Below are positions 13,856 through 57,692 of a DNA stretch of 64,000 nt, piece after piece. Source of the stretch: Bacillota bacterium (GTDB lineage: Bacteria > Bacillota > Sulfobacillia > JAIMAT01); the NCBI GenBank assembly GCA_023511835.1, contig JAIMAT010000005.1:2049-66048 (forward strand), written 5' to 3'. Numbering within the stretch: position 1 is the stretch's first letter; every line of letters begins with the position of its first letter. The notes beneath the pieces are model-generated. The model did not search any database and had not been told where the DNA came from. It worked only from the letters and a program-made list of their open reading frames with translations. Made by a program: the position numbers and the translations under genes.

Positions 13856-15019
13856 GTGTGGGACCTGGAGGCCGTGCGCAGGGAGCTGCCCGCGGTGCAG
13901 CGGTACGTCTACCTCAACACCGGCACGGCCGGCCCGCTGCCGCGCCGGGCGGCGGCGGCGCTGGAGGAGGCGCTGGCCCGGGAGCTCGAGGAGGGCCGGG
14001 CCTGGCCGGACCTCTGGCCCGAGGCGGAGCGGCGGCGCGAGCTCCTGCGCCAGCGGGTGGCCTCGCTCATCGGCGCCCGGCCCGACGAGGTCGCGCTCAC
14101 CCACCATACCAGCGAGGGTCTGAACATCGTCCTCTGGGGGATCGACTGGCGCCCCGGCGACGAGGTGGTGACCACCGACGCCGAGCACGAGGGCGGCCTC
14201 GTCCCGCTCTACCTGCTCCACCGCCGGCGGGGCGTGGGTCTCCGCTTCGCGCACCTCGGCGACGGCTCGGAGGAAGCCGCCCTGGAGGCCGTCCGCCGCG
14301 CGCTGACACCCTCCACCCGGCTCCTTCTCCTCTCCCACGTCAGCTACTCCACCGGCGCCCGCCTGCCGCTGGCCGAGATGGCCGCCCTGGCCCGGGAGCG
14401 GGGCGTGCAGGTGCTGGTCGACGGCGCGCAGTCGGTCGGCGCGCTGCCCGTCGACGTGGCCGCCCTGGGCGTCGACTACTACGCCCTCCCCGGTCAGAAG
14501 TGGCTCCTGGGACCCGAGGGGACGGGGGCGCTCTACGTCCGCGCCGACCGCCTGGAGGAGCTCCAGCCTACCTTCGCCGCCTGGGCCAGCGCCCGCCACG
14601 GCTCCGTCGACCCGCGGGCTCCCGGCTTCGAGCCGGCGCCAGGCGCACGCCGCTTCGAGGTGGGCACCGTCTTCGACCCCGGCCTCGAGGCCTGGCGCGC
14701 CTCGCTGGAGTGGCTGGACTCCCTGGGCTGGCCGGCCGTCTTCGAGCGCGTCGGACGCCTGGCCCGGTACGCGCGGGAGCGGTTGGGCGGGCTCCCCGGG
14801 CTGCGGGTGACGACGCCGGGGAACGCGGCCGGCCTCCTCCACTTCCGCCTGGAGGGCCGCGAGCCGGCCGGCGTGGTGGCGGAGCTGCGCCGCTCGGGCT
14901 TCATGCTGCGCGCGACGCCGCATCCCGAGCAGCTGCGCATCTCCACCGCCTTTTTCAACACCGAGGAGGAGATCGACCGGCTCGCCCGCGCGCTGGAAGA
15001 GCTGCCGCCCTCCGCCTGA
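13856..15019 (+). CDS. Class V PLP aminotransferase (cysteine desulfurase / C-S lyase-like)
   Basis: YLNTGTAG, HTSEGLN, LSHVSY.TG, VDGAQSVG, PGQKWLLGPEGTG (PLP lysine). GTG 13856 follows GGAGGGGG. Confidence 0.9.
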   Translation: MWDLEAVRRELPAVQRYVYLNTGTAGPLPRRAAAALEEALARELEEGRAWPDLWPEAERRRELLRQRVASLIGARPDEVALTHHTSEGLNIVLWGIDWRPGDEVVTTDAEHEGGLVPLYLLHRRRGVGLRFAHLGDGSEEAALEAVRRALTPSTRLLLLSHVSYSTGARLPLAEMAALARERGVQVLVDGAQSVGALPVDVAALGVDYYALPGQKWLLGPEGTGALYVRADRLEELQPTFAAWASARHGSVDPRAPGFEPAPGARRFEVGTVFDPGLEAWRASLEWLDSLGWPAVFERVGRLARYARERLGGLPGLRVTTPGNAAGLLHFRLEGREPAGVVAELRRSGFMLRATPHPEQLRISTAFFNTEEEIDRLARALEELPPSA

Positions 15020-43999: not shown

Positions 44000-44199
44000 G
44001 GCCACCCCTCCGGGCGCGAAAGCTTTCCACCGCGGGAAGCGACTTCCTTCCCGCGGGGAGTCCCGAGCCCGCCCCGGCGCCTCGGCGCCGGCGGCCTCTT
44101 GCCGCACCCAGCGGCCTGTGGTAAAGTCCTGCGCAAATCCGGCCGCCCCGGGCGGGCGGAGCGCAAGACGGGAAGACGGTAGGGTACCGGGAGGTCCTC

Positions 44200-44667
44200 G
44201 TGGGCAAGACGGCAGGATGGTCCTCCTCGCCGCCGGGTGACTGGCGGCTCCCCAGGACACGTGCCCGCACGGCCCTGCGCGGCGTGCGCGGCGCCACCAC
44301 GGCGGAGGACGACACGGCCGACGCCATTCGGCGGGCGACCCAGGAGCTCCTCGAGGAGCTGGTGCGGCGGAACGGCCTGCGGCCCGAGGAGCTGGCCGCG
44401 GTCTTCTTCACCCTCACCCCCGACCTGACCGCCTTCTACCCCTCCCAGGCGGCGCGCGAGCTGGGCTGGCGGCTGGTGCCGCTGCTCGACCTGGGCCAGG
44501 CCCCCGGCCCGCGGCCCGTGGCGCGCTGCATCCGGGTGCTGGCGCTCTGGAACACCACGCGGCGGCCGGAGGAGATCCGACACGTCTATCTGCGCGGGGC
44601 GGCGGGCCTGCGGCCCGACCTGGCCGCCGGCGAGGCGGGGGAGGCGGAGCCACCTTGGTCATCGTGA
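44200..44667 (+). CDS. aroH: Chorismate mutase, AroH class
   Basis: [16 protein letters not shown]...[29 protein letters not shown]. Confidence 0.92.
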
Positions 44668-45719
44668 TGCGCGAGGGTGCGGCGGCGAGCGAGGTCGAGC
44701 GGGTGGTGCGGGCGGTGGAGGAGCTGGGCCTGCGCCCGCACCGCTCCGACGGCGAGCTGCGCTCGGTGGTGGGCGTCATCGGCGACGTCAGCCGCGTCTC
44801 CGAGGAGCACTTCCTGGCGATGCCGGGCGTGGAGCGGGTGGTGCGGCTGGAGCAGCCGTACAAGCTGGCGAGCCGCGCCTTCCGCCCCGAGGGCTCGCGC
44901 GTCTGGGCGGGGCCGGTGGAAGTGGGGGGCCCCGGGATCGTGGTCATGGCCGGCCCCTGCAGCGTGGAGAGCCGCGAGCAGCTGCTGGAGGCGGCCCAGG
45001 CGGTGCGCGCGGCCGGCGCCGCCGTCCTGCGCGGCGGCGCCTTCAAGCCGCGCACCTCGCCCTACACCTTCCAGGGACTGGGAGCGGAGGGGCTCCGCCT
45101 CCTGGCCGAGGCCCGGCAGCGCACCGGCCTGCCCGTGGTGACCGAGGTGATGGCGCCCCAGGAAGTGGAGCTGGTGGCGGAGTACGCCGACGTGCTCCAG
45201 GTGGGCACGCGCAACATGCAGAATTTCCCGCTGCTCCGGGAGCTGGGGCGTGCCGGCAAGCCGGTCCTCCTCAAGCGCGGCATGTCGGCCACCGTGGAGG
45301 AGTGGCTCCTGGCGGCCGAGTACGTCCTCAGCCACGGTAACCCCGACGTCATCCTCTGCGAGCGGGGCATCCGCACCTTCGAGCCGGCGACGCGGAACAC
45401 GCTGGACCTGGGGGTGGTGCCGCTGGTCAAGCGGTTGAGCCACCTGCCCGTGGTGGTCGACCCCAGCCACGCCACCGGCCTCTGGGAGCTGGTGACGCCC
45501 ATGGCACTGGCCGCCGTGGCGGCGGGCGCCGACGGCCTGCTCATCGAGGTCCACCCCGACCCCAGCCGGGCGCTCTCGGACGGCCGCCAGTCGCTGCGGC
45601 CGGACCGGCTGGCGCGCCTGGTGGAACAGGCCGAGGCGGTGGCCCAGGCGGTGGGGCGCTGGATCCTCCGCCCGGAGCAGGCGGAGCTGCCCAGGCGGGC
45701 GGCGGCGGCCGGACGGTAG
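44655..45719 (+). CDS. aroF: DAHP synthase type I-beta with N-terminal ferredoxin-like regulatory domain
   Basis: [61 protein letters not shown]. Confidence 0.95.
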
Positions 45720-45735
45720 GGGAGGGGAGCCCGCC

Positions 45736-46671
45736 GTGCGTGAGCGGGCGGTGGCCATCTTCGGCCTGGGCCTGATCGGGGCCTCCGTCGGCCTCGGCCT
45801 GGCGGGGCGGCTGCGGCGGCTGGGCGCCGATCCCGACCCCGAGGCGCGCCGCGTGGCGGAGGCGACGGGCGCGGTGGAGGCGGCCCACGAGGCGCCGGGC
45901 CCCTGGCTGGGCGAGGCCTCGCTGGTCGTCCTGGCCGCGCCGCCCGGGGCGCTGCCTGCCCTGGCGGCCGCCGTGGCGCCGTGGCTCGCCCCGGACGCCG
46001 TCGTCACCGATGTGGCCGGCGCCAAGGGCCGTGTGGCCGCGGCGCTGGAGCCGCTTCTGCCCGCGGGGCGTTACGTGCCCGGCCACCCCATGGCGGGCAG
46101 CGAACGGACGGGCGCGCGCTGGGCCGATCCCGCCCTCTTCCGCGGCGCGGTCTGGTTCTTCTGCCCGCCACCGGCCGCCTCCGCCGCCGGCACCCCCACC
46201 GCGGCATGGGAGGCGGCGTACGCGCGCGCCGCCCGGCTCGCGGAGAGCCTGGGCGCCCGCCCCCTCCGGCTGCCGGCGGCGCTCCACGACCGCTGGGTGG
46301 CGCGCACCAGCCACCTGCCCTACCTGGTGGCGGCGGCGCTGGCGGCCGCGGCCGGCGTGGAGGAGTCGCAGGGCATCGCCCAGGCGGTGGCGGGCGGCTT
46401 CCGCGACGGCACGCGGGTGGCGGCGATGAACCCGGAGGTGGGCGCCGGCATGTGCCTGGCCAACCGGGAGGAGCTCCTGGCCGCGCTGGGCGCCTTCCGC
46501 CGGGCGCTGGATGCGCTGGAGGAGGCGCTCGGCGAGGGACGGGAGGAGCGGCTGGTCGGCCTCCTGGCGCGGGCCCGGGCCGCCCGCGCCGCCCTGCTCG
46601 AGGCGGCGGAGGCGGCGACGGATGGGGAGCCCGCGCCGGCGGGGCCCTCCGCGGGGAGGGATGGCGACTGA
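45736..46671 (+). CDS. tyrA: Prephenate dehydrogenase
   Basis: GLGLIGAS, TDVAGAK, PGHPMAGSE, HD..VARTSHLP, GGFRDGTRVA. Confidence 0.88.
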   Translation: MRERAVAIFGLGLIGASVGLGLAGRLRRLGADPDPEARRVAEATGAVEAAHEAPGPWLGEASLVVLAAPPGALPALAAAVAPWLAPDAVVTDVAGAKGRVAAALEPLLPAGRYVPGHPMAGSERTGARWADPALFRGAVWFFCPPPAASAAGTPTAAWEAAYARAARLAESLGARPLRLPAALHDRWVARTSHLPYLVAAALAAAAGVEESQGIAQAVAGGFRDGTRVAAMNPEVGAGMCLANREELLAALGAFRRALDALEEALGEGREERLVGLLARARAARAALLEAAEAATDGEPAPAGPSAGRDGD

Positions 46672-47996
46672 AGCTGCGCCTGGAGGCGAGAAGGCGACCG
46701 CTCGAAGGAAGTTTCCGTCCGCCCGGCGACAAGTCCGTCTCGCACCGCGCCGCGCTCCTGGCCGGCGCGGCGCGCGGACGCTCGTGCCTGCGCGGCCTGG
46801 CGCCGGGCGCCGACGTGGCCTCGACACTCCGCGCGCTGGAGGCTCTGGGCGTCCGCCTGGAACGCCGCCCGGAGCGGGGCGGGGAGACGGTGGTGGAGAG
46901 CCCGGGGCTCGACGCCTGGGCGGAGCCGGCCGACGTGGTCGACTGCGGCAACTCCGGCACCACCATCCGCCTCCTGGCCGGGCTCCTGGCCGCTCGGCCG
47001 GGGCTGGCGGTGCTGACCGGCGACACCTCGCTGCGCCGCCGGCCCATGGACCGGGTGGCCGAGCCGCTCCGCGCCATGGGCGCCTCCGTGGACGGGCGTG
47101 AAGGCGGCCGCTACGCCCCCCTGGTGGTGCGCGGCGGGCCGCTCCGCCCCCTGGCCTGGCGGAGCCCGGTGGCCAGCGCCCAGGTCAAGTCGGCCATCCT
47201 CCTGGCCGCCCTGCGCGCGCCCGGCGAGACCGCCGTCTGGGAGCCGGTGCCCAGCCGCGACCATACGGAGCGCCTCTACGCCTGGCTGGGGCTGCCGATC
47301 CGCACCGGGGGGAGCGGCGGAGAGGAGCCGGCGGGCGGTCCGCCTCCCGTCCGGCTGGCCGGCCCCGCCAGCCCGCCCCCCTTCGCTCTGGAGGTTCCGG
47401 GCGACCCCTCGGGCGCCTTCCCCTACGCTGTCCAGGCGGCGCTGACGCCCGGCTCGGAGCTGGAGATCGAGGGCGTGCTGCTCAACCCGCTCCGCCTGGG
47501 GGGCTACCGGCTGCTGGAGCGCATGGGCGCCCGCCTCGAGCTCGTCCGCGAGGGCGAGGCGGGCGGCGAGCCCGTGGGCCGCATCCGCGTACGGGCCTCG
47601 GCGCTCGGGGCCATCGAAGTACGGCCGGAGGAGGTGCCGGCGGCGGTGGACGAGCTGCCGCTCCTGGCCGTGGCCGCCTGCGCGGCCGAGGGCGAGAGCC
47701 GCTTCCTGGGGCTGGGCGAGCTGCGCGTCAAGGAGAGCGACCGGCTCCACGCCATGGCCGCCGGCCTGCGCGCCATGGGCCTTCCGGTGGAGGAGGAGGG
47801 GGACGGCTGGCGGGTGCGGGGGCCGGCACGGGGGCACGGCGCCGCCCTGGAGAGCGCGGGCGACCACCGGGTTGCCATGGCGCTGGCGGTGGCCGCCTGG
47901 ACGCTGCTCGCCCCGGGCGAGGTGGCGGAGCTGGAGGGCGCGGAGAGCGTGGCCATCTCCGACCCCGATTTCTTCCGGCGGGCGGGCGTCGCCTGA
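46668..47996 (+). CDS. aroA: EPSP synthase, predicted CTG start overlapping the tyrA stop (CTGA)
   Basis: PGDKSVSHRA, DCGNSGTTIRL, SLRRRPM, SAQVKSA, RDHTER, VPGDPS, DELP, ELRVKESDR, DHRVAMA. Confidence 0.93.
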   Translation: MKLRLEARRRPLEGSFRPPGDKSVSHRAALLAGAARGRSCLRGLAPGADVASTLRALEALGVRLERRPERGGETVVESPGLDAWAEPADVVDCGNSGTTIRLLAGLLAARPGLAVLTGDTSLRRRPMDRVAEPLRAMGASVDGREGGRYAPLVVRGGPLRPLAWRSPVASAQVKSAILLAALRAPGETAVWEPVPSRDHTERLYAWLGLPIRTGGSGGEEPAGGPPPVRLAGPASPPPFALEVPGDPSGAFPYAVQAALTPGSELEIEGVLLNPLRLGGYRLLERMGARLELVREGEAGGEPVGRIRVRASALGAIEVRPEEVPAAVDELPLLAVAACAAEGESRFLGLGELRVKESDRLHAMAAGLRAMGLPVEEEGDGWRVRGPARGHGAALESAGDHRVAMALAVAAWTLLAPGEVAELEGAESVAISDPDFFRRAGVA

Positions 47997-48862
47997 TGCG
48001 GCTGGCGGTGGTGGGCGACCCGGTGGCCCACTCGCTCTCTCCGGCCATGCAGGAGGCGGGCCTGCGCGCCGCCGGCCTGGGCGGGCGTTACCTGGCGCTG
48101 CGCGTCGAGCGCGGGCGCCTGGCGGAGCGCGCAGCCGAGCTGGAGGCGGAGGGCTTCCTGGGACTGAACGTCACCATGCCGCTGAAGGAGGAGGCGCTGG
48201 CCCTGGCCCGGCGGCGGTCGCGCCGCGCGCTCCGGGCGGGCGCCGCCAACACCCTGGTACGCCTTCCGGAGGGGGGCTGGGCGGCGGAGAACACCGACGT
48301 GGAGGCGGTGGCGGGGGCGCTCGCCGAGCGCGGCTGGCGGCCGGGACCGGCGCTGGTGCTGGGCGCCGGCGGCGCGGCGGGGGCGGCGGCGGTGGCGCTG
48401 GGCGAGCTGGGCGCGCCGCGGGTGCGGCTCCTCAACCACCACGCCGGCCGGGCCGAGCGGCTGGCCGCGCGGATGCGCGCCCACTTCCCGGCCACCCGCT
48501 GGGAGGCGGCCTCCTGGTCGGAGGCCGGTGGCGTCGGGCAGGCCGGGGCTCCGGAGGGGTGGAGCCTCCTCGTGCAGGCGACGCCGCTGGCCATGGAGGG
48601 CGTCGGGGCCGGCTACCCGCTTCCGCCGGAGGAGCTGGCGGCCGCGCTGGCCCCGGGGGGATGGGTGGTGGAGCTGGTCTACCGGCCGCCGCGCACGCCG
48701 CTCCTGGAGGCGGCCTCGGCAAGGGGCCTGGGCGTGGTCGACGGGGTCGAGCTGCTGCTCCGACAGGGCGCCGCCTCCTTCGAGCTCTGGACGGGGCGGG
48801 AGGCGCCGCGGGAGGCGATGCGCCGGGCGCTGGAGGAGGTGCTGGGTTGCTCCGCTGGCTGA
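47996..48862 (+). CDS. aroE: Shikimate dehydrogenase
   Basis: GDPVAHSLSP.M, G.NVTMPLK, AANT, NTD, GAGGAA, ELVYRP..T, GVELLLRQGA..F..W. Confidence 0.92.
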   Translation: MRLAVVGDPVAHSLSPAMQEAGLRAAGLGGRYLALRVERGRLAERAAELEAEGFLGLNVTMPLKEEALALARRRSRRALRAGAANTLVRLPEGGWAAENTDVEAVAGALAERGWRPGPALVLGAGGAAGAAAVALGELGAPRVRLLNHHAGRAERLAARMRAHFPATRWEAASWSEAGGVGQAGAPEGWSLLVQATPLAMEGVGAGYPLPPEELAAALAPGGWVVELVYRPPRTPLLEAASARGLGVVDGVELLLRQGAASFELWTGREAPREAMRRALEEVLGCSAG

Positions 48863-50106
48863 CGGGGGGCGAGTCGCACGGCCCCGGGCTGACGGTCGTG
48901 GTGGACGGGCTGCCGGCGGGCGTCCCGCTGGACGGGGAGCGGGTGGCGGCCGAGCTGGCGCGCCGCCAGCAGGGCTACGGCCGCGGCGGGCGGATGCGCA
49001 TCGAGCGGGATCGGGCTCGCTTCCTGGGCGGGGTGCGGCACGGGCGCAGCACCGGGGCGCCGGTGGTCCTCTGGATCGAGAACCGCGACTGGGCCAACTG
49101 GCAGGAAGTCCTCTCCCCCGACCTGCCCTCCCCCGGCGCGGAGGCGGAGGGGGCGGGGGAGGCTCCGCGGGAGAGCCCCACGGCGGCGGAGCGGCGCCGG
49201 GCGCCGGTGGAGCGGCCGCGCCCGGGCCATGCCGACCTGGCCGGCGCCCTCAAGTACGGCCACCGCGACATGCGGGACGTGCTGGAGCGCGCCAGCGCCC
49301 GCGAGACGGCGGCGCGGACGGCGGCGGGGGCGGTGGCCAAGCGCCTCCTCGCCGAGCTGGGGGTGGAGGTGGGCAGCTTCGTCGAGCGCATCGGGCCGGC
49401 CACCTGGCGCAGGGAGCCCGCCTATCCGGCCGATCCGGACGCGTGGCGGGCCTGGGCGGCGGCGGCCGAGCGCTCGCCCGTCCGCTGCCCGGAGCCGCAG
49501 GCGGAGGCGGCCATGATGGAGGTCATCGAGCAGGCGCTGCGCGAGGGCGACACGGTGGGCGGCCGCTTCCTCGCCTTCGCCGTGGGCCTCCCCGCGGGCC
49601 TGGGCAGCTACGCCCAGTGGGACCGGCGCCTGGACGGCCGCATCGCCCAGGCCGTGGTCTCCATCCCCGGCGTCAAGGCGGTGGCCATCGGCGCCGGCGA
49701 GGAGATGGCGGAGGAGCCGGGTTCGTGCGTCCACGACCCGCTCCTGCCCGATCCCTCCGGTCCGCGGCCGGGGCGCTTCGTCCGTCCCAGCGACCGGGCG
49801 GGCGGGCTGGAGGGCGGCGTCACGAACGGCGAGCCGCTCCTGGTGAGCGGGGTGATGAAGCCGCTGGCCACGCTCCGCCGCGGCCTCCCCTCGGTCCACA
49901 TGCCCAGCGGGCAGCCGGCCGAGGCGACCTACGAGCGCTCCGACGTCTGCGTGGTGCCGGCGGCGGGGGTGGTGGCCGAGGCCATGCTGGCGCTGGTCCT
50001 GGCGGACGCGCTGCTGGAGGCGGTGGGTGGCGACAGCCTGGAGGAGGTGCGCCGCCACGTGGAGGAGCGGCGCCGCGCCCGGGAGGCCGGCTGGCCGTGG
50101 GGCTGA
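48847..50106 (+). CDS. aroC: Chorismate synthase
   Basis: LRWLTGGESHG, RRQQGYGRGGRM.IE, RPGHAD, LERASARETA, GGLEGG.TNG, MKP..TL, RSDVC.VP. Confidence 0.95.
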   Translation: MLRWLTGGESHGPGLTVVVDGLPAGVPLDGERVAAELARRQQGYGRGGRMRIERDRARFLGGVRHGRSTGAPVVLWIENRDWANWQEVLSPDLPSPGAEAEGAGEAPRESPTAAERRRAPVERPRPGHADLAGALKYGHRDMRDVLERASARETAARTAAGAVAKRLLAELGVEVGSFVERIGPATWRREPAYPADPDAWRAWAAAAERSPVRCPEPQAEAAMMEVIEQALREGDTVGGRFLAFAVGLPAGLGSYAQWDRRLDGRIAQAVVSIPGVKAVAIGAGEEMAEEPGSCVHDPLLPDPSGPRPGRFVRPSDRAGGLEGGVTNGEPLLVSGVMKPLATLRRGLPSVHMPSGQPAEATYERSDVCVVPAAGVVAEAMLALVLADALLEAVGGDSLEEVRRHVEERRRAREAGWPWG

Positions 50107-51767
50107 GCGCAGCCGGCGGGGTTCGGCTGGCGCTGGTCGGCCTGAGCGGCAGCGGCAAGGGGAGCGTGGGCCGGCTCCTGGCGCGGAGGCTGGACGTGGC
50201 CTGCCTCGACCTGGACCGTCTGGTGGAGCTGGAGGCGGGTGCGCCCGTCCGCCACATCTGGGCGGAGGAGGGGGAGCAAGGCTTCCGGCGCCGCGAGGCG
50301 GCGGCGCTGGAGCGGGCTCTGGAGCTGGGCGAGGCCGTGCTGGCCACCGGCGGCGGCACGCCCCTCCTGCCCGGCGCCATGGACAGGCTCGTGGCCTGGG
50401 GCCGGGTGGTCTGGCTGGACGCGCCGCCCGAGGTGCTGGCCGCCCGGCTGGGGGAGGAGGAAGTGGCCGGGCGGCCGCTCTTCGCCGGCCGCCTGCCGGC
50501 GGAGGTGCTGCGCGCGCAGCTGGCCGCCCGGCGCGCCGTCTACGCGCGGGCGCTCCGCATCGACGCCGCGGCCGCCCCGGCCGAAGTGGCGGAGCGCGTC
50601 CTGGCCGCCGCCGGCCTTCGCCCGGCGGAGCGGCCGTCCGCCGTGCGCCGGCTCTCCGTGGGCGGCGCCTACGAAGTGGAGGTGAGCGACGCGGCGCCCG
50701 AGCGGCTGGCCGACTGGCTGGCCGGGGCGGGGGCGGAGCGGCTGGTGCTGCTGGCGGAGCCGCTGGCGGGGGCGCTGGCCGGCGGGGAGATCCTGGAGGC
50801 CTGCCGCGCCCGGGGGCTCCAGGCGGAGCTCCTCCTCTTCCCCGGCGGCGAGGAAGCCAAGCGCCTCGTGACGGTGGAGCGCCTCTACCACGAGCTGGTG
50901 CGGCGGGGCGTGGAGCGGACCACCTGGCTGCTGGCCGTGGGCGGCGGGGTGACCACCGACCTGGGCGGCTTCGTCGCCGCCACCTTCCTGCGCGGCCTGC
51001 CCTGGGTGGCCGTGCCCACCACGCTCCTCGCCCAGGTGGACGCCGCCATCGGCGGCAAGACCGGCGTCGACCTGGAGGAGGGGAAGAACCTGGTGGGCGC
51101 CTTCTACCCGCCGCGCCGGGTCGTCGCCGACGTGCGCTGGCTGCGCGCCCTGCCGCGACAGCTCCTCCTGGAGGGGATGGGCGAGGTGGTCAAGGCGGCG
51201 CTCCTGGCCGGCGAGCCCTTCTGGAGCTGGCTGGAGGAGGCGAGGCCGGCGCTGCTCGCCCGCGAGCCGGAGGCGCTGGCCGAGGCGGTGGCGCGCGCGG
51301 CCGCCGTCAAGGCCGAGGTGGTGGCCGCCGACGAGCGCGAGGCAGGGCGGCGCGAGCTGCTCAACCTGGGGCACACCTTCGCCCACGCGCTGGAGTGGGC
51401 CAGCGGCTACCGGCTCCGCCACGGCGAGGCGGTGGCCACGGGACTCTTTCTGGCCGCCCGGCGGGCGGAGGCGGAGGGGCTCCTGCCGGCGGCGGAGCGG
51501 CGCCGCATCGAGGCGCTGCTGGAGGCGTACGGGATCGGGAGGAGCGCCGCGCTGCCGCGCGGGGAGGCTTCCTCGCCCGACCGGCTGGCGGCGGCGCTGG
51601 CCGTCGACAAGAAGCGCCGCCATGGCCGGCTCCGCCTGGTGCTGCCGCGGGCGGTGGGCGACGTGGTCGCTGGCTGGCCGGCCGAGACGGAGGAGCTGGC
51701 CCGCTGGCTCGCCTCCGCGCTGGAGCGGTTATCCTGGGAAGGAGAGAAGCCCACGGGAAGAGGGTGA
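50097..51767 (+). CDS. aroKB: Fused shikimate kinase / 3-dehydroquinate synthase (AroK-AroB)
   Basis: GLSGSGKGSVG, GE.GFR.RE, ATGGG, RP; then GEEAK, GGGVTTDLGGF, PTTLLAQVDAAIGGKTG, LNLGHTFAHALE, HGEAVA. Confidence 0.92.
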   Translation: MGLSAAGGVRLALVGLSGSGKGSVGRLLARRLDVACLDLDRLVELEAGAPVRHIWAEEGEQGFRRREAAALERALELGEAVLATGGGTPLLPGAMDRLVAWGRVVWLDAPPEVLAARLGEEEVAGRPLFAGRLPAEVLRAQLAARRAVYARALRIDAAAAPAEVAERVLAAAGLRPAERPSAVRRLSVGGAYEVEVSDAAPERLADWLAGAGAERLVLLAEPLAGALAGGEILEACRARGLQAELLLFPGGEEAKRLVTVERLYHELVRRGVERTTWLLAVGGGVTTDLGGFVAATFLRGLPWVAVPTTLLAQVDAAIGGKTGVDLEEGKNLVGAFYPPRRVVADVRWLRALPRQLLLEGMGEVVKAALLAGEPFWSWLEEARPALLAREPEALAEAVARAAAVKAEVVAADEREAGRRELLNLGHTFAHALEWASGYRLRHGEAVATGLFLAARRAEAEGLLPAAERRRIEALLEAYGIGRSAALPRGEASSPDRLAAALAVDKKRRHGRLRLVLPRAVGDVVAGWPAETEELARWLASALERLSWEGEKPTGRG

Positions 51768-51771
51768 CCCC

Positions 51772-52560
51772 TTGCGACTCTTCGCCGCCGCCATGCCGGA
51801 CCTCGGGCGGCTGCCGGCTCAGCTCCCCGAGGGGGCGCTGGTGGTGGTCGCGCCCTCCGGCGAGGCCTGGGAGGAGCAGCTCGGCCGGGCCGGCGAGCTG
51901 GCCCGCTCGCGCGCGCTCTGGGTGGTGGTGGCCGGCCCGCGTCGGGAGGGGGAGGGGTGGCGCCTCTCCGCCGCCTGCCTCTCGCCCGAGGGCCGCCCGG
52001 TGGCCGTGCAGGACGAGCTCTTCCCGCCGCAGGGCTGGCGCGCGGGCGGGCGCCTGGAGCTCTTCGAGCTGGCGGGCTGGCCGGCGGCGCTGCTGGTGGG
52101 CGAGGACGTCCTCTGGCCGGAGGTGGCCCGACTGGCGACGCTGGAGGGTGCGCGCCTGCTGGCGGTCCCCAGCCTCTACCCGCCGGAGGAGGCGGGGGGC
52201 GCGCCGACGGGGCCCTGGCGCCAGCTGGCGGGCGGCTGGCAGGAAGTCCAGCAGAACCAGGTCTTCGCTGTCGAGAGCCCGCTGGACGGCGAGCTGGCGG
52301 GACGGCGCTCGCACGGCCGCGCCGCCGTCTGGGCCCCTTGCGAGATCACGCCCGACTCCCGCGGCTGGCTGGACTGGGCCGAGAAGCCCGGCGAGGCGGC
52401 TGCGGCATGGCTGGAGGAGGAGGCGCTCGAGGGGATCCGCGACGCCTACCCGCTGGAACGTTTCCTCAACCCGGCGCTCTACCGGCGGCGGCTGGCGGAG
52501 GCCTACGAGCGGTTGGCGGGCGAGGCGGGCGCGGGTGCGGCGGGAGGCGGGGAGCGATGA
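51772..52560 (+). CDS. Carbon-nitrogen hydrolase (nitrilase) fold protein lacking the catalytic triad
   Basis: Fold pattern recognisable (LLVGED.LWPEVARLATLEGARLL.VP, QQNQVF.V, G.AAVWAPCE), but Gly replaces the nucleophilic Cys and the Glu/Lys are not seen. Confidence 0.7.
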   Translation: MRLFAAAMPDLGRLPAQLPEGALVVVAPSGEAWEEQLGRAGELARSRALWVVVAGPRREGEGWRLSAACLSPEGRPVAVQDELFPPQGWRAGGRLELFELAGWPAALLVGEDVLWPEVARLATLEGARLLAVPSLYPPEEAGGAPTGPWRQLAGGWQEVQQNQVFAVESPLDGELAGRRSHGRAAVWAPCEITPDSRGWLDWAEKPGEAAAAWLEEEALEGIRDAYPLERFLNPALYRRRLAEAYERLAGEAGAGAAGGGER

Positions 52561-53720
52561 GCGGAGCAGAGGCGGAACGGGAGGGCGGGGAGCTGCTGCC
52601 GCTGCCCGGGGATGCACGGCTCTTCCGCCTGGCACCCGGCGTGGCCGAGGCGGCGCTGGCGGAGGCCGGCTTCGGCGCCGCCAGGGCGGCGGACGTGGAG
52701 GCGGCGGGCGCCGGGCAGGGCGGCGGGGCTCGGGACCGGGGAGCGCGACGGGGTCGCCTGCGGGCGGCGGCGGTGCAGATGGAGCTGCGCCTCCACCGGC
52801 GGGCTGCCGGCTGGGCGCGCCAGGTGCGCGAGCTCGGACTGCGGGCGGCGGAGCGACTGGAGGCGCTGGCGGGGGGCGCGGGCGGAGCCGCCCCGACGCT
52901 CATCGCCTTCCCCGAGGACGTGGCCACGGGGCTGGTCGGCCTCCTTCCCGGTTTCGACGAGCTGGCCAGCCGGGCGGCGGCGGCGCTCGAGGGCGGCGGC
53001 GCCGCCGAGGGGGCGCCGCGCGTCGCCGACGTCTTCGCCGCCGTCGGGCCGGCGGCGGAGGAGCTCTACCGGGCCGTCTTCGCCGCCCTGGCGCGCGAGA
53101 CGGGCGCCTGGGTGGCGGCGGGCAGCGCCAACCTGCCCGCGCCCGACGGCTGCGTCTACAACGTCGCCCACCTTTTCGCCCCGGACGGCCGCCTCGTGGG
53201 GCGGCAAGCCAAGAGCCACCTCCTGCCGCTGGAGGCCGCCTGGGGCCTGATGCCGGGACGGGAGCTGGAGGTCTGGGAGCTGCCCTGGGGACGGCTGGCC
53301 CAGCCGGTCTGCATGGACGCCACCTACTTCGAGACCTTCCGCATCGCCCGCGGCCTGGGCGCCGACGTGGTCGTCATCCCCAGCGCCAATCCCGAACGGC
53401 CGTACAACGAGTGGACGGCTACCAGGGGGATCTGGCCGCGGGTGCAGGAGAGCCAGGTCTACGGAATCCAGGCCTCGCTGGTGGGCGACTTCCTGGGCGT
53501 GGGGCTGAGCGGCAAGAGCGGCCTCTTCGCGCCGCTGGCGCTCTCGCCGCGGGGCGACGGCGTACTGGCGCGGTTGGAGGACCCCTACGGCGAGGGGGTG
53601 GCGGCGGCGGTGTTCGACCTGGAGGCGCTGGACGAGTTCCGCGCGCGCCACCCGCTGGCCGGGCGGCTCAACCGCCCCGTGCTGGAGCGGCTCCTGGAGG
53701 CGTACAGCCGGCTTGGCTGA
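52557..53720 (+). CDS. Carbon-nitrogen hydrolase (nitrilase/amidase) family protein with intact E-K-C triad
   Basis: IAFPED, YNVAHLF.PDG, QAKSHL, PVCMDATYFE, IPSAN. Confidence 0.85.
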   Translation: MSGAEAEREGGELLPLPGDARLFRLAPGVAEAALAEAGFGAARAADVEAAGAGQGGGARDRGARRGRLRAAAVQMELRLHRRAAGWARQVRELGLRAAERLEALAGGAGGAAPTLIAFPEDVATGLVGLLPGFDELASRAAAALEGGGAAEGAPRVADVFAAVGPAAEELYRAVFAALARETGAWVAAGSANLPAPDGCVYNVAHLFAPDGRLVGRQAKSHLLPLEAAWGLMPGRELEVWELPWGRLAQPVCMDATYFETFRIARGLGADVVVIPSANPERPYNEWTATRGIWPRVQESQVYGIQASLVGDFLGVGLSGKSGLFAPLALSPRGDGVLARLEDPYGEGVAAAVFDLEALDEFRARHPLAGRLNRPVLERLLEAYSRLG

Positions 53721-55170
53721 GCGGTTCGACGGGGAGGCTGCCCGGGCCCCCGGGGAGGCCGAGGGGATGGAGGCTCGGCGTCGGCTGGCCGCCCTCCTCG
53801 AGAAGGCTCCGCGCTTCGCACCCGTCCCCGGCCTGGAGAGCATGAGTCGCCTGGCGGCGGCGTTGGGCCGTCCCGAGCGCCGGCTCCGGGTCATCCACCT
53901 GGCCGGCACCAACGGCAAGGGTTCCACCGCCGCCATGCTGGCCTCCATCCTGGCGGCGGCGGGCCGCCGCGTGGCGCTCTTCACCTCGCCCCACCTGGTG
54001 GCGTGGGAGGAGCGCCTCCGCCTGGACGGCCAGCCGGTCGGCCCCGGCGAGCTGCTCCAGGCGCTGGAGCGGGTGCTGGCGGCGGACGCGGCGACCGCGG
54101 CCGCGGGCGAGAGCCCCCTCCTCCAGTCCGAGCTCCTGACGGCAGCCGCCTGGTGGCTGGCGGAGCGCCGGGGCGCCGACTGGCTGGTGCAGGAGACGGG
54201 GCTGGGCGGCCGCTACGACCCCACCAACGCGGTCGAGGCGCCGAGGGCCGTGGTCTGGACGCCCGTCCACCTCGACCATACCCGCCTCCTGGGCCGCTCC
54301 ATCGCGCGCATCGCCGCCGACAAGGCCGGCATCGCCAAGGCCGGTGCCGTGGCGGTCAGCGCCCGCCAGAAGCCGGCGGCGCGGGCGGCGCTGGAGGCGG
54401 CGACGGCCGTCGTCGGCGGGCGGCTGCGCCTGCTGGGAAGGGACTTCCGCCTCGGGCGGGTGCGGCTCCTGGACGGCCTCGCGCCCGGCGACCGCCTGGG
54501 CGGCGTCGCCTTCGACTACCGCGGACCCTCCTGGCGGCTGGAAGAGCTCCGCCTCCCGCTGCCCGGCTTCCATCAGGCGGAGAACGCGGCGGTGGCTGTG
54601 GCGGTGGCCGAGGCGCTGGCGGAGCAGGGTGACGGCCCGGGACCGGAGGCGGTCCGCGCCGGGCTGGCCCGGGTCCGCTGGCCCGGCCGCCTCCAGCTTT
54701 GGCGCGAAGGTGGCCGCCTCTGGATCCTGGACGGGGCGCACAACCCGCACGCCGCGCGGGCGCTGGCCGGCTGGCTGGAGGCCGCCGGCGGCGTGGCCTG
54801 GACGGTCCTGGCGGTAGGACGCGAGAAGGCCGCAGGCGGACTGGTGGCAGCCCTGGCGCCGGCGGGCGGCCGGCTCCTGCCGGTGACGGCGCTGGAGGAC
54901 GGCTTCCCGCTTCAGCCGGCCGCGCGGCTGGCGCGCCTCTGGCGGATGGCGGGCGGAGAGGCGGCGCTGGAGCCGGCCGCCTCGCCCGCCGAGGCTTTCG
55001 CGCGCCTCCGCGCCCTGGCCTCGCCGGGCGAGCGGCTCCTGGTCACCGGTTCACTCCACCTGGTCGGCGCCTGGTTGCGGCTCCTCCGCCCCGCCGGCGC
55101 GAGCGGCCCGCTCGGCCTCGGGGCCGCGGCGCTCGACGATGCGGCTCAGCTCCATGTCGCCCAGCCGTAG
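53713..55170 (+). CDS. folC: Folylpolyglutamate/dihydrofolate synthase
   Basis: IHLAGTNGKGST, FTSPHL, ER, E.GLGGR.DPTN, LDH..LLG, IA.DKAGI, HQAENA, WPGR, LDGAHNP, VTGSLHLVG. Confidence 0.9.
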   Translation: MAERFDGEAARAPGEAEGMEARRRLAALLEKAPRFAPVPGLESMSRLAAALGRPERRLRVIHLAGTNGKGSTAAMLASILAAAGRRVALFTSPHLVAWEERLRLDGQPVGPGELLQALERVLAADAATAAAGESPLLQSELLTAAAWWLAERRGADWLVQETGLGGRYDPTNAVEAPRAVVWTPVHLDHTRLLGRSIARIAADKAGIAKAGAVAVSARQKPAARAALEAATAVVGGRLRLLGRDFRLGRVRLLDGLAPGDRLGGVAFDYRGPSWRLEELRLPLPGFHQAENAAVAVAVAEALAEQGDGPGPEAVRAGLARVRWPGRLQLWREGGRLWILDGAHNPHAARALAGWLEAAGGVAWTVLAVGREKAAGGLVAALAPAGGRLLPVTALEDGFPLQPAARLARLWRMAGGEAALEPAASPAEAFARLRALASPGERLLVTGSLHLVGAWLRLLRPAGASGPLGLGAAALDDAAQLHVAQP

Positions 55171-55260
55171 GCGGAAGCCCTTCCGCTCGCTGAGCGGGTT
55201 GTAGAGGCGCTCCCCGCGCGCCTCGTGCGGGCTCTTTCTCCCGTCATCCCTTGGCTCCAT
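55051..55260 (-). CDS. Small hypothetical protein (69 aa), convergent with and overlapping folC
   Basis: GGGAGG RBS 10 nt before ATG 55260; high GC3 through LYNPLSERKGFRLRLGDMELSRIVERRG. Confidence 0.4.
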   Translation of the reverse strand: MEPRDDGRKSPHEARGERLYNPLSERKGFRLRLGDMELSRIVERRGPEAERAARAGGAEEPQPGADQVE

Positions 55261-55413
55261 GCCGGCCAAGCCTCCCGTCGCGCCTCTAGTCTTGGGGCGC
55301 GGCCTCCGGCTTCATGCGGGCGGGGGCTGGAGATGGCTGCCGGCGCTGCCAGGCGTGCCTCCTCGATGGCGCGAAAAGCTGACTTATAATTGCGCCAGCA
55401 GGGAGGTGGCCGC

Positions 55414-56226
55414 ATGCCGTGGTTGTTCGTCACGTTCACGGCGGTGCTCCTCTTGCTCCTCCTGCTGGCCGACCACGTCAAGAACCGCTTCCGGCACACG
55501 CCCTCCAGCCGGCGCACCCTGGCGGCGGAAGGCGCGGCCGTGGCCGTCGCCGGCGCTCTCGCCGCCTGGCGGCTCCTCCCCCACGCGCCCGCCTGGCAGC
55601 TGGTTGCGCTGGCGCTGGTGCTGGCCGTGCCGGGCTACGTGCTGACCGCCTACGTCACGGTCGAGGTCTGGCGACATCGGAAACAGGGCAGCTTTGACCG
55701 CCACATCCGCCGCCTGCAGCGCGAGATCGACCGGCTGGAGGAGGAGGTCGAGCGGCTCACCTGGCAGCTGGCCGAGCTGCAGCGGCGCCGCCAGCGCCTG
55801 CGCGACGAGGAGACGCAGGCCGCGGTGCGCGAGCAGATGCTGCGCGACCAGGTGGAGGCCTGGGTGGCGGCCCGCGACTCGGGCGCGCGCAGCTCGGCCG
55901 TCCTGGAGTGGGAGATCGCCTACCGGGCCATGAGCCCGGCGGAGCGGGCGGCGGAGCGCGAGCGGGTCCAGCAGGCGCTGCGCGGCGCCCGCGACGGCGA
56001 CGAGCGGGGCGAATGGGGCGCGCGGCTTAACCTGCTCGCCCTGGCCGAGCTGCTTGCGCCCGGAGCGGAGGGAGCCTCCGGCCTCCAGGGCGTGGAGCAG
56101 GAGATCCACCTCTGCCGCGACGCACGCGAGAATGCCCAGCGGCGCCTGGAACAGCTGGAGGGCGAGTTGCGCGGCTGGCTCGAGCGACGCCACGCCTTCC
56201 TGCGCGAGAAGATCCCCCTGGACTAG
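55414..56226 (+). CDS. Hypothetical membrane protein (3 TM) with a long C-terminal coiled coil
   Basis: TATAAT at 55385, GGGAGG RBS, hydrophobic N-terminus, heptad-rich IRRLQREIDRLEEEVERL... segment. Confidence 0.75.
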   Translation: MPWLFVTFTAVLLLLLLLADHVKNRFRHTPSSRRTLAAEGAAVAVAGALAAWRLLPHAPAWQLVALALVLAVPGYVLTAYVTVEVWRHRKQGSFDRHIRRLQREIDRLEEEVERLTWQLAELQRRRQRLRDEETQAAVREQMLRDQVEAWVAARDSGARSSAVLEWEIAYRAMSPAERAAERERVQQALRGARDGDERGEWGARLNLLALAELLAPGAEGASGLQGVEQEIHLCRDARENAQRRLEQLEGELRGWLERRHAFLREKIPLD

Positions 56227-56318
56227 AGCCCGGTGCGGCCCTGCCGCCCGGCCGGAGCGACCGGGAGCGCGGCACGCCGGCGCAGCCGGGAAGAGGTCGG
56301 GTCATACGGCCTGGAAAG

Positions 56319-56347
56319 AAAACCCCGCCCTCCCTGGGCGGGGTTTT
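56319..56347. terminator. Bidirectional intrinsic terminator between convergent genes
   Basis: AAAACCCCGCCC-TCCCT-GGGCGGGGTTTT, with A/T tracts on both sides. Confidence 0.85.
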
Positions 56348-56379
56348 CGCCTTCCGGCGCGGCGCGGACGTCGGGACGC

Positions 56380-57507
56380 CTAGACGTCCGCCTGCTGGGC
56401 CGCCGGCCGCTGGACGGGAAGGAAGCGGTCGGCCAACCGGGCCATGATCTGGGGCATGGTGGTGTACTCCATGTCTTCGGCGGGCAGGCGGTGCGGCTCG
56501 AAGGGGCCCTGGCGCCGGATGTATCCGGCGATCTCGTTGGCGAGCCGGCGTGCCTCGTCGAAGGCGACGTCGGCGAACATGTCGCGTGGCCCCACCAACT
56601 CGCCGTCGGCCAGCTGGTAGCCCAGGCCGATGACGCGGGGCGGCCCGTCGAAGCGCGTCGGATGTGCCTGGTCGACGGAGCAGGGCATCAGCGGCCCGAC
56701 GAAGGAACCCCGCATCCAGCCGCCCACCAGGTGCGGTGTGCTGAAGGCCTCCAGCACCTCGCCGACGGCGGGCAGGCCGCTCTGGCAGCGGACGATCATG
56801 GACGGGTCGTCCTTGCCCACGTAGCGGCCGGCGATCAGGTTGAGGCGCTGGGTGGTGGCGACGGCGGCGATCTCGCCCAGCTCGCGCGAGTAGACGGCGC
56901 TGATGACGTAGCGGCCGGGCGTGCCGATGAAGGCCAGAAGGTCATAGGCCTCCTCGGGGCAGTTGAGGCGGATGAGACGGTCTTCACGCAGGTCGTGTAC
57001 CTCGAAGGTGAAGCCGCCGTGCATCTTGGGGTCGATAACCAGCCCCGGGGTGTTGAAGGGATCGGCGAAGATCCGGTAGAGAGGCAGGTTCCAGGCGCCC
57101 GGCTCGGTCTTGTCGGCCATGAAGATGAGCAGCGGTTCGCTGGGCCGTTCCTCGAACTCCATCTCGGCGATCCCCGGGCCGAGGCCGCGGATATTGCCCG
57201 AGAAGGCGTCGGCCAGCAGGTCCTGGCCGGCCCCGTAGAGCTTCAGCCGCCTGGCCACGTCGGTGCAGCCGCGGAAGGTATCCCAAGCGAGCTGGTGGAC
57301 GGCCGGGTCGTTGACGCCGCGGCGGTGGGTGAGCACCAGGTTGATGTCGTCGCCCACCGAGGAGACGCTGAAGTCGACCAGCAGCCGGCCCTTCTCCGCC
57401 GCCAGCGCCTCCCGGGCGTACTCCAGCGTCTCGGGGTGGACGGCACCGTGACCCACGAAACCGCCGATGTCCGCCTTGATCACGCTGACGGTGATCTTCT
57501 CGCCCAC
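56380..57507 (-). CDS. fbp: Bifunctional fructose-1,6-bisphosphate aldolase/phosphatase (FBPase class V)
   Basis: ITVSVIKADIGG..GH, GDD, KLYGAGQDLL.DAFSGN, DKTEPGA, YVGKDDP (Schiff-base Lys), GWMRGS, MEYTT; GTG after GGGAGGAGG. Confidence 0.95.
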   Translation of the reverse strand: MGEKITVSVIKADIGGFVGHGAVHPETLEYAREALAAEKGRLLVDFSVSSVGDDINLVLTHRRGVNDPAVHQLAWDTFRGCTDVARRLKLYGAGQDLLADAFSGNIRGLGPGIAEMEFEERPSEPLLIFMADKTEPGAWNLPLYRIFADPFNTPGLVIDPKMHGGFTFEVHDLREDRLIRLNCPEEAYDLLAFIGTPGRYVISAVYSRELGEIAAVATTQRLNLIAGRYVGKDDPSMIVRCQSGLPAVGEVLEAFSTPHLVGGWMRGSFVGPLMPCSVDQAHPTRFDGPPRVIGLGYQLADGELVGPRDMFADVAFDEARRLANEIAGYIRRQGPFEPHRLPAEDMEYTTMPQIMARLADRFLPVQRPAAQQADV

Positions 57508-57692
57508 GTGCGCCCTCCTCCCTTCGGGTTCTGGAAAGCGGCTGCCGCCAGAGGAGACGAGCCTCCAGGGCGGAAGCGCCCGCCTTCCCCTTTTGGATAC
57601 GCCGGCGACGGGATCCTGCTCTCCGCCGCCACGACCGGGAGGCATAGCGCCCGCCCGGCCCGGCATAGCCGTCGCCGGGGAGGGGCGATGCC

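Follow-up and report, generated by a model that had tools for sequence, protein, structure and literature searches.

The subject of this report is a pair of tandem genes, here named cnh1 and cnh2, in a 64,000-nucleotide stretch of contig JAIMAT010000005.1 (the window) from the genome of a Bacillota bacterium of the class Sulfobacillia (assembly GCA_023511835.1). Both genes encode nitrilase-fold proteins, of which the first appears catalytically dead and the second active, and together they probably form a single enzyme. Because the G+C content of the window is about 79%, raw lists of open reading frames were useless, so gene frames were assigned from periodic third-position G+C (GC3) and from Pfam matches. 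The features of the pair are as follows.

51772..52560, + strand: cnh1, proposed catalytically dead nitrilase-fold subunit, 262 amino acids (GC3 frame; TTG start)
52099..52101, + strand: codon of Gly110 of cnh1, motif VGED, in the column of the nucleophilic Cys (alignment column 276)
52557..52560, + strand: ATGA start/stop overlap, cnh1 to cnh2 (read directly in the sequence)
52557..53720, + strand: cnh2, proposed catalytic nitrilase-fold subunit, 387 amino acids (Pfam CN_hydrolase; intact E/K/E/C)
53310..53312, + strand: codon of Cys252 of cnh2, predicted nucleophile, motif PVCMDATYFE (the invariant Cys of column 276)

The first-pass annotation of the window described two nitrilase-superfamily genes joined by an ATGA overlap, and this description holds, the fold being supported by Pfam and by the protein models presented below. 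By our gene calls, the sister species and four further genomes from other families of the class share this 4-nt overlap of cnh1 and cnh2. An alternative in-frame ATG start of cnh1 lies at 51793. Ahead of the fold, cnh2 as called here carries an N-terminal extension rich in Gly, Ala and Arg (about 68 amino acids, residues 1-68, 52557-52760). The GC3 signal is ambiguous at 52550-52700, and a recorded gene call (P0009, 315 amino acids) begins past the extension.

The cnh2 protein matches Pfam CN_hydrolase (PF00795) with 43.3 bits, above the gathering cut-off of 23.2. Its catalytic tetrad is intact and comprises E120, K219 and C252, the triad that had already been read as complete, together with a second Glu, E226; all four fall in alignment columns that show no variation among the 149 catalytic-type domains. 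Like the nitrilase-superfamily amidases of known structure, cnh2 combines a Glu-Lys-Glu-Cys tetrad with the motif C-x-D-x-x-[FY]-x-E, but it differs from them in its remote sequence, in a helical insert past the first catalytic Glu, and in its N-terminal extension. A PDB search by sequence found no close solved structure, the closest being 3ivz with only 41 bits. Relatives carry only the database names "nitrilase-related carbon-nitrogen hydrolase" or "hypothetical protein", and an identity as Nit1/Nit2 (deaminated-glutathione amidase, omega-amidase) finds no support in model NF043013, on which cnh2 scores 18.9 against a cut-off of 500. By its fold and catalytic tetrad, cnh2 belongs in the nitrilase superfamily, outside every characterized branch, and the enzyme is most likely a carbon-nitrogen hydrolase of the amidase type.

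The cnh1 protein is a paralog of cnh2 (E = 2.8e-13, 36% identity). It scores 17.4 bits on PF00795, under the cut-off of 23.2, and 12.2 on the equivalog model NF033621 (cut-off 355); other members of its family have a precomputed PF00795 match. In a family alignment of about 300 domains, the E/K/E/C columns are occupied in cnh1 by A16, E82, a gap and G110. Earlier observations that a Gly replaces the nucleophilic Cys at codon 52099, and that the catalytic Glu and Lys are missing, are both upheld by this alignment. Based on an AlphaFold2 (AF2) model computed from 59 family sequences, with a mean predicted local distance difference test (pLDDT) score of 92.9 and a predicted template modeling (pTM) score of 0.87, cnh1 is predicted to be a complete nitrilase fold, the four-layer alpha-beta-beta-alpha sandwich of the superfamily, despite its lost catalytic residues. 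The model matches nitrilase-superfamily structures with Z scores of 22-25.5, for example, 2plq (Z 25.5, root-mean-square deviation 3.7 Å over 245 residues) and mouse Nit2 2w1v (Z 24.9, 2.6 Å over 226 residues). The fold is common to cnh1 and cnh2, for which matches to superfamily amidases (mouse Nit2 2w1v; Pyrococcus PH0642/amidase 1j31 and 6ypa; Geobacillus pallidus aliphatic amidase 2plq; N-carbamoylputrescine amidase 5h8i) range from Z 22 to 31, with deviations of 2.0-3.8 Å over 220-280 residues. In comparison with two sister species, the ratio of nonsynonymous to synonymous substitution rates (dN/dS; Nei-Gojobori method, with values that are rough at such high G+C) is 0.43-0.45 for cnh1, 0.39-0.40 for folC and 0.26-0.27 for cnh2, and cnh1 is under purifying selection.

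Judged from sequence searches, the dead protein represents a large conserved family. A profile of cnh1 relatives run against 1.84 billion cluster representatives retrieved 430 of them at E <= 1e-30, and single-domain dead forms account for 117 of the best 150. When one genome of each species was scanned with a sequence pattern, 132 species genomes encoded a cnh1 relative. Almost all are Bacillota, many of them anaerobic and thermophilic, with carriers in Thermaerobacter, Syntrophomonadaceae, Thermoanaerobacteraceae, Dethiobacter and Carboxydocellales, including the cultured Desulfitispora alkaliphila DSM 22410; a cnh2 ortholog is present in Thermaerobacter marianensis. The domains of the family alignment comprise a catalytic class reading E-K-E-C (n = 149) and a dead class reading x-Q-E-G (n = 155). 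In the dead-type domains the first Glu is replaced by Ala or Gly and the Lys by Gln (137 of 155); at column 276, where all 149 catalytic-type domains have Cys, 128 of the 155 have Gly. The vestigial pocket of the dead domains is nevertheless conserved, with its His in 131 and its Asp in 153 of the 155, and its Pro-Glu and Arg in about 98%. A maximum-likelihood tree of 106 domains groups 51 of 52 dead domains in a single clade, which is sister to the catalytic clade (Shimodaira-Hasegawa-like approximate likelihood ratio test values 90 and 81; outgroup, the third CN hydrolase of this genome), so that one ancient duplication fits. One protein with a dead-type signature, P0224, is placed inside the catalytic clade, and the halves of the two-domain protein P0127 (611 amino acids) read EKEG+EKEG; in both cases the nucleophile may have been lost independently and recently, or the alignment may be at fault.

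The two genes occur together with few exceptions. Each of the 17 other class genomes with a cnh2 ortholog has a cnh1 homolog immediately upstream of it, in one of them as a fusion, and in one genome of the class a single open frame of 687 amino acids spans both halves. Among 80 loci examined from species genomes, 75 had enough sequence to determine the downstream neighbor of cnh1, which is cnh2 in 73. Sixteen natural two-domain fusions are known to us from this survey (for example, P0013 with 658 and P0015 with 618 amino acids). The dead half always comes first, and the second half reads E-K-E-C in 15 of the 16, the exception being P0127. Since the fusions occupy at least six separate places in the tree, in both clades, fusion or fission took place repeatedly.

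As a proxy for the heterodimer we used an AF2 model of the fusion P0015, which has a pLDDT of 91.4 and a pTM of 0.91 and is disordered only in the linker (residues 276-298) and the last residues. Both halves are complete nitrilase folds: its dead half (residues 1-257) matches 7elf with Z 28.6, and its catalytic half (residues 303-609) matches 2w1v with Z 30.9. Because the pTM is this high despite a floppy linker between two domains of about 300 residues, their mutual arrangement is confidently predicted. Gene adjacency, the fusions and the pTM of the fusion model lend good, though indirect, support to a putative obligate cnh1-cnh2 heteromer. The first-pass annotation had suggested a heteromeric hydrolase with a non-catalytic subunit; together with the conserved dead state, these comparative results support that suggestion strongly, and we consider it likely to be correct. 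The interface would presumably correspond to the canonical nitrilase dimer surface.

Known nitrilase-superfamily enzymes are homo-oligomers of identical active subunits, whereas one subunit of the proposed enzyme would be a dedicated dead paralog. The nearest functional precedent is the plant pair NIT4A/NIT4B, a heteromer of nitrilase paralogs as we propose for cnh1 and cnh2. Both NIT4A and NIT4B presumably retain the catalytic triad. They are branch-1 nitrilases of plants; by contrast, the cnh1 family is bacterial, has lost Glu, Lys and Cys, and includes fusions. In sorghum and other grasses, the active enzyme is a heteromer of the two paralogs (PMC5154151). Conceptually, the closest case is the trypanosomatid AdoMetDC "prozyme", described in PMC5201418 as a dead paralog kept as the obligate partner of a live enzyme. 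Its fold and its host organisms are unrelated to those considered here, and activation of cnh2 by cnh1 is only putative; like a prozyme-type partner, cnh1 is a paralog that has lost its catalytic residues and is conserved. Literature searches turned up neither a dead/live pair of nitrilase-fold proteins nor a link between GH125 and nitrilases.

We propose that a nitrilase-fold gene underwent an ancient tandem duplication that gave rise to two sister lineages. The downstream copy, cnh2, would have retained the Glu-Lys-Glu-Cys active site, and the upstream copy, cnh1, would have lost the first Glu and exchanged the Lys for Gln (Glu in this genus) and the Cys for Gly while retaining the whole fold. 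In the complex, cnh1 would replace the second protomer of the two-fold dimer that is usual for nitrilases, leaving one active site per complex, and its conserved vestigial pocket may help to hold or sense part of the substrate. Translational coupling through the ATGA overlap would keep the proportion of cnh1 to cnh2 fixed.

Two kinds of gene recur near the pair. One encodes a GH125-like protein of about 600-700 amino acids with the GH125 match in its C-terminal half (Pfam PF06824, 35-96 bits; solved GH125 alpha-1,6-mannosidases, 44-57 bits). The other encodes a transporter of the major facilitator superfamily (MFS), from the glycoside-pentoside-hexuronide (GPH) family (TIGR00792, 140 bits, under the cut-off of 231). 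Of the 80 species loci, 35 contain the GH125-like gene, 26 the MFS/GPH symporter gene and 20 both, in varied orders and orientations. Of the 41 class genomes, 23 lack the pair, and none of these has the GH125-like gene; the 14 genomes in which that gene occurs all carry the pair, although this co-occurrence is no statistical test because the class genomes are related and the counts are not independent. Neighborhood and co-occurrence point the same way, and the most economical reading is therefore that the substrate is an imported glycoside bearing a C-N bond, or its aglycone. In other Bacillota the pair would belong to a module together with a glycoside symporter of the GPH family and a glycosidase of distant GH125 type. 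Going by gene association, the substrate would probably be a glycoside with an amide, N-acyl, carbamoyl or nitrile group, or the corresponding aglycone, and perhaps an amide-bearing glycoside. Mannosylglyceramide is an example of an amide-bearing glycoside; no evidence ties it to the pair.

Several points in addition to the relatedness of the class genomes weigh against this explanation. About half of the loci have neither a GH125-like nor an MFS gene within 7 kb. In the present genome the GH125-like gene is on another contig (contig C22 of genome G000; locus L036, 8774-10702, minus strand), among unrelated neighbors, and elsewhere, too, it is often on a contig other than that of the pair. All scores on NCBIfam equivalog models are far under their cut-offs, so that no curated family indicates the substrate. 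Finally, cnh1 is further reduced in this genus: helix alpha-1 is absent and the vestigial pocket has lost its Gln, its His and the second Glu, so that a ligand-binding role of the pocket may not apply here.

Other neighbors of these genes were recorded. In Syntrophomonadaceae-type genomes the pair follows polA-mutM-coaE on the same strand, and the pair thus slots into unrelated housekeeping operons. This context sometimes adds a gene for an isocitrate/isopropylmalate dehydrogenase of the Iso_dh family, and at several such loci (L046, L052, L061, L067, L081, L088 and others) genes for a YbaK-like editing-domain protein, the GPH symporter and the GH125-like protein converge from downstream. We considered polA, mutM, coaE, the Iso_dh-family dehydrogenase and riboflavin genes as functional partners and rejected them, their presence reflecting synteny within Syntrophomonadaceae-like genomes instead. 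In one lineage, at about a dozen Thermaerobacter-like loci and at L104 (3099-3866, plus strand), a 4HBT-type thioesterase gene is near the pair; in L024 (8890-9396, minus strand) and L027 (3028-3477, minus strand) it comes directly after cnh2. An HD-domain gene recurs in nine loci. Directly upstream of the GH125-like gene of the present genome are genes for a PlsC-like acyltransferase and a penicillin amidase (Ntn) (L036, 10636-13395, minus strand), and a GlpX-type fructose-1,6-bisphosphatase is encoded at L036, 13418-14416, minus strand. The PlsC-like acyltransferase, the penicillin amidase, GlpX and EamA were rejected as partners of the GH125-like protein, this arrangement being conserved within the genus only. 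The same genome encodes, in the window (56380-57666, minus strand), an archaeal-type fructose-1,6-bisphosphate aldolase/phosphatase (Pfam FBPase_3).

The position of the pair in the window had suggested a different function, namely a glutaminase or amidase module for chorismate, p-aminobenzoate (pABA) and folate metabolism that supplies ammonia to aminodeoxychorismate synthesis or processes an amide of folate or pABA. The flanking genes are the following.

45736-46671, + strand: tyrA (GC3/Pfam)
ends at 47996, + strand: aroA (GC3/Pfam)
47996-48862, + strand: aroE (GC3/Pfam)
48859-50106, + strand: aroC (GC3/Pfam)
50103..51767, + strand: aroK-aroB fusion (aroKB), upstream neighbor of cnh1 (Pfam SKI and the N and C domains of DHQ_synthase)
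53713..55170, + strand: folC, downstream neighbor of cnh2 (TIGR01499, 298 bits; cut-off 162.65)

These assignments agree with the first description of the aro genes and folC, as does the spacing of 4 bp upstream of cnh1, where the aroKB stop codon TGA (51765-51767) is followed by CCCC and the TTG at 51772. The reported overlap of cnh2 with folC depends on the start of the latter: a TTG at 53713 gives an overlap of 8 nt, and an in-frame ATG at 53767 behind GGGGAGG, read directly in the sequence, gives a gap of 46 nt. In the sister species, the conserved part of FolC starts after residue 24-39 or so. All terminator-like hairpins within 44000-56500 are 3' of folC, the first at 55213-55231, in keeping with the earlier impression that the pair is co-transcribed with its neighbors.

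This tight packing speaks for a tie to folate metabolism, and so does the use of CN-hydrolase domains as glutaminases in NAD+ synthetase. That domain (3sez/3syt) shares the fold with Z 27.3-27.4 and is a precedent for ammonia supply, but cnh1 and cnh2 have no synthetase as a partner or fused to them. cnh2 scores only 9.5 bits on the NAD+ synthase model NF010588, with a cut-off of 479. The genome, which is 96% complete, contains one chorismate-binding enzyme, with TrpE as its best match (502 bits, just under the cut-off of 517.7; contig C84 of genome G000, 14095-14856, minus strand, given as L117, 5009-6655, minus strand), and a separate pabB was not found in it with PF00425, which leaves pABA synthesis not obviously accounted for. 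However, a TrpG/PabA-type amidotransferase gene adjoins the TrpE-like gene (L117, 4401-5117, minus strand), and the genome shows no evident orphan synthase that would require an ammonia donor, nor any fused or conservedly linked ammonia-using synthetase. Moreover, when aroKB, aroC, aroA, aroE, tyrA and folC were sought around 18 class loci and the 80 species loci, the linkage to aro and folC was confined to this genus, with its two sister species: a single one of the 80 loci had it, the one belonging to the sister species, and the 15 other families of the class lacked it. Elsewhere the pair can be embedded among polA, mutM and coaE, and its recurrent partners are the GH125-like protein and the GPH symporter. 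Thus, the pairing of cnh1 with cnh2 is conserved and the aro/folC linkage is not. We regard a role in chorismate-pABA-folate metabolism as very unlikely, and the sequence comparisons do not support the placement of the pair as a functional link; it would be a local accident.

Three further explanations concern cnh1 itself. It could be a separate, non-enzymatic ligand sensor or regulator that is co-expressed with cnh2 without forming a stable complex, and the strong conservation of the vestigial pocket would suit such ligand binding. Repeated independent fusions in the same cnh1-cnh2 order and the pTM of the fused model instead argue for tight physical association, and 4-nt overlaps recur in several families; we consider a free-standing sensor improbable, though the least so of the alternatives. 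That cnh1 is a functionless, decaying duplicate beside an ordinary homo-oligomeric cnh2 might be suspected from its score under the Pfam cut-off, the loss of all three triad residues, its shortening in this genus, and its faster evolution relative to cnh2 in both dN/dS and branch lengths. Yet its frame is intact, its dN/dS resembles that of folC, its fold is modeled with high pLDDT, and the family has been kept across the 132 species genomes with family-specific invariant residues retained and fusions maintained, so that decay is highly improbable. Least probable of all, in our view, is that cnh1 is still an enzyme with a relocated nucleophile. The candidate would be a Cys-Glu pair (C190-E191, motif APCEITP) that is often present in members of the dead family. 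This Cys is present in 104 of 155 dead-type domains (67%), with Val or Leu in 39, and all other Cys or Ser columns are below 50%. Where the dead family has the APCE Cys, catalytic subunits carry Leu, Met or Ile, which marks this as a position of the hydrophobic core instead of a relocated nucleophile. A check of the sequence alignment for shifted catalytic residues in cnh1, the sole recurrent Cys being this one, accordingly found none.

On balance, we consider it probable that cnh1 and cnh2 together make up an asymmetric C-N hydrolase, each as one of its two subunits, and that this enzyme belongs to a glycoside-type module, with incidental folate neighbors. In this genus, the pair would have landed between aroKB and folC and would share their transcription but have no functional connection to folate. 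A more far-reaching version would see here an undescribed class of asymmetric nitrilase-fold enzymes in which the dead pocket (Gln-His-Glu-Gly-Asp) binds one portion of a bipartite substrate, for example, the sugar of a glycoside with an amide or nitrile group, and the live subunit cuts the C-N bond, as part of a new catabolic pathway of Bacillota with the GPH symporter and the GH125-type glycosidase. This version is speculative and, we think, rather unlikely to hold in full; equally tentative is its corollary that the hosts of such a pathway would be anaerobic, thermophilic and alkaliphilic Bacillota.

In conclusion, our analysis corrects a tempting, yet unsupported, guilt-by-association link of the window to folate, and the tie to a GH125-type glycosidase and a GPH symporter provides a concrete start for the search for the substrate. 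Nitrilase-superfamily enzymes are widely used in biocatalysis and are textbook homo-oligomers. For the genes of about 130 species that are named "nitrilase" or "hypothetical protein", activity is probably not reproducible from the catalytic gene alone. If the proposal is correct, these bacteria possess a large family whose working unit pairs a live subunit with a dedicated dead paralog and in which single-chain fusions occur naturally. To our knowledge, this would be the first such case for the nitrilase fold in bacteria, and it would offer a clean model of how pseudoenzyme partners arise from symmetric dimers.

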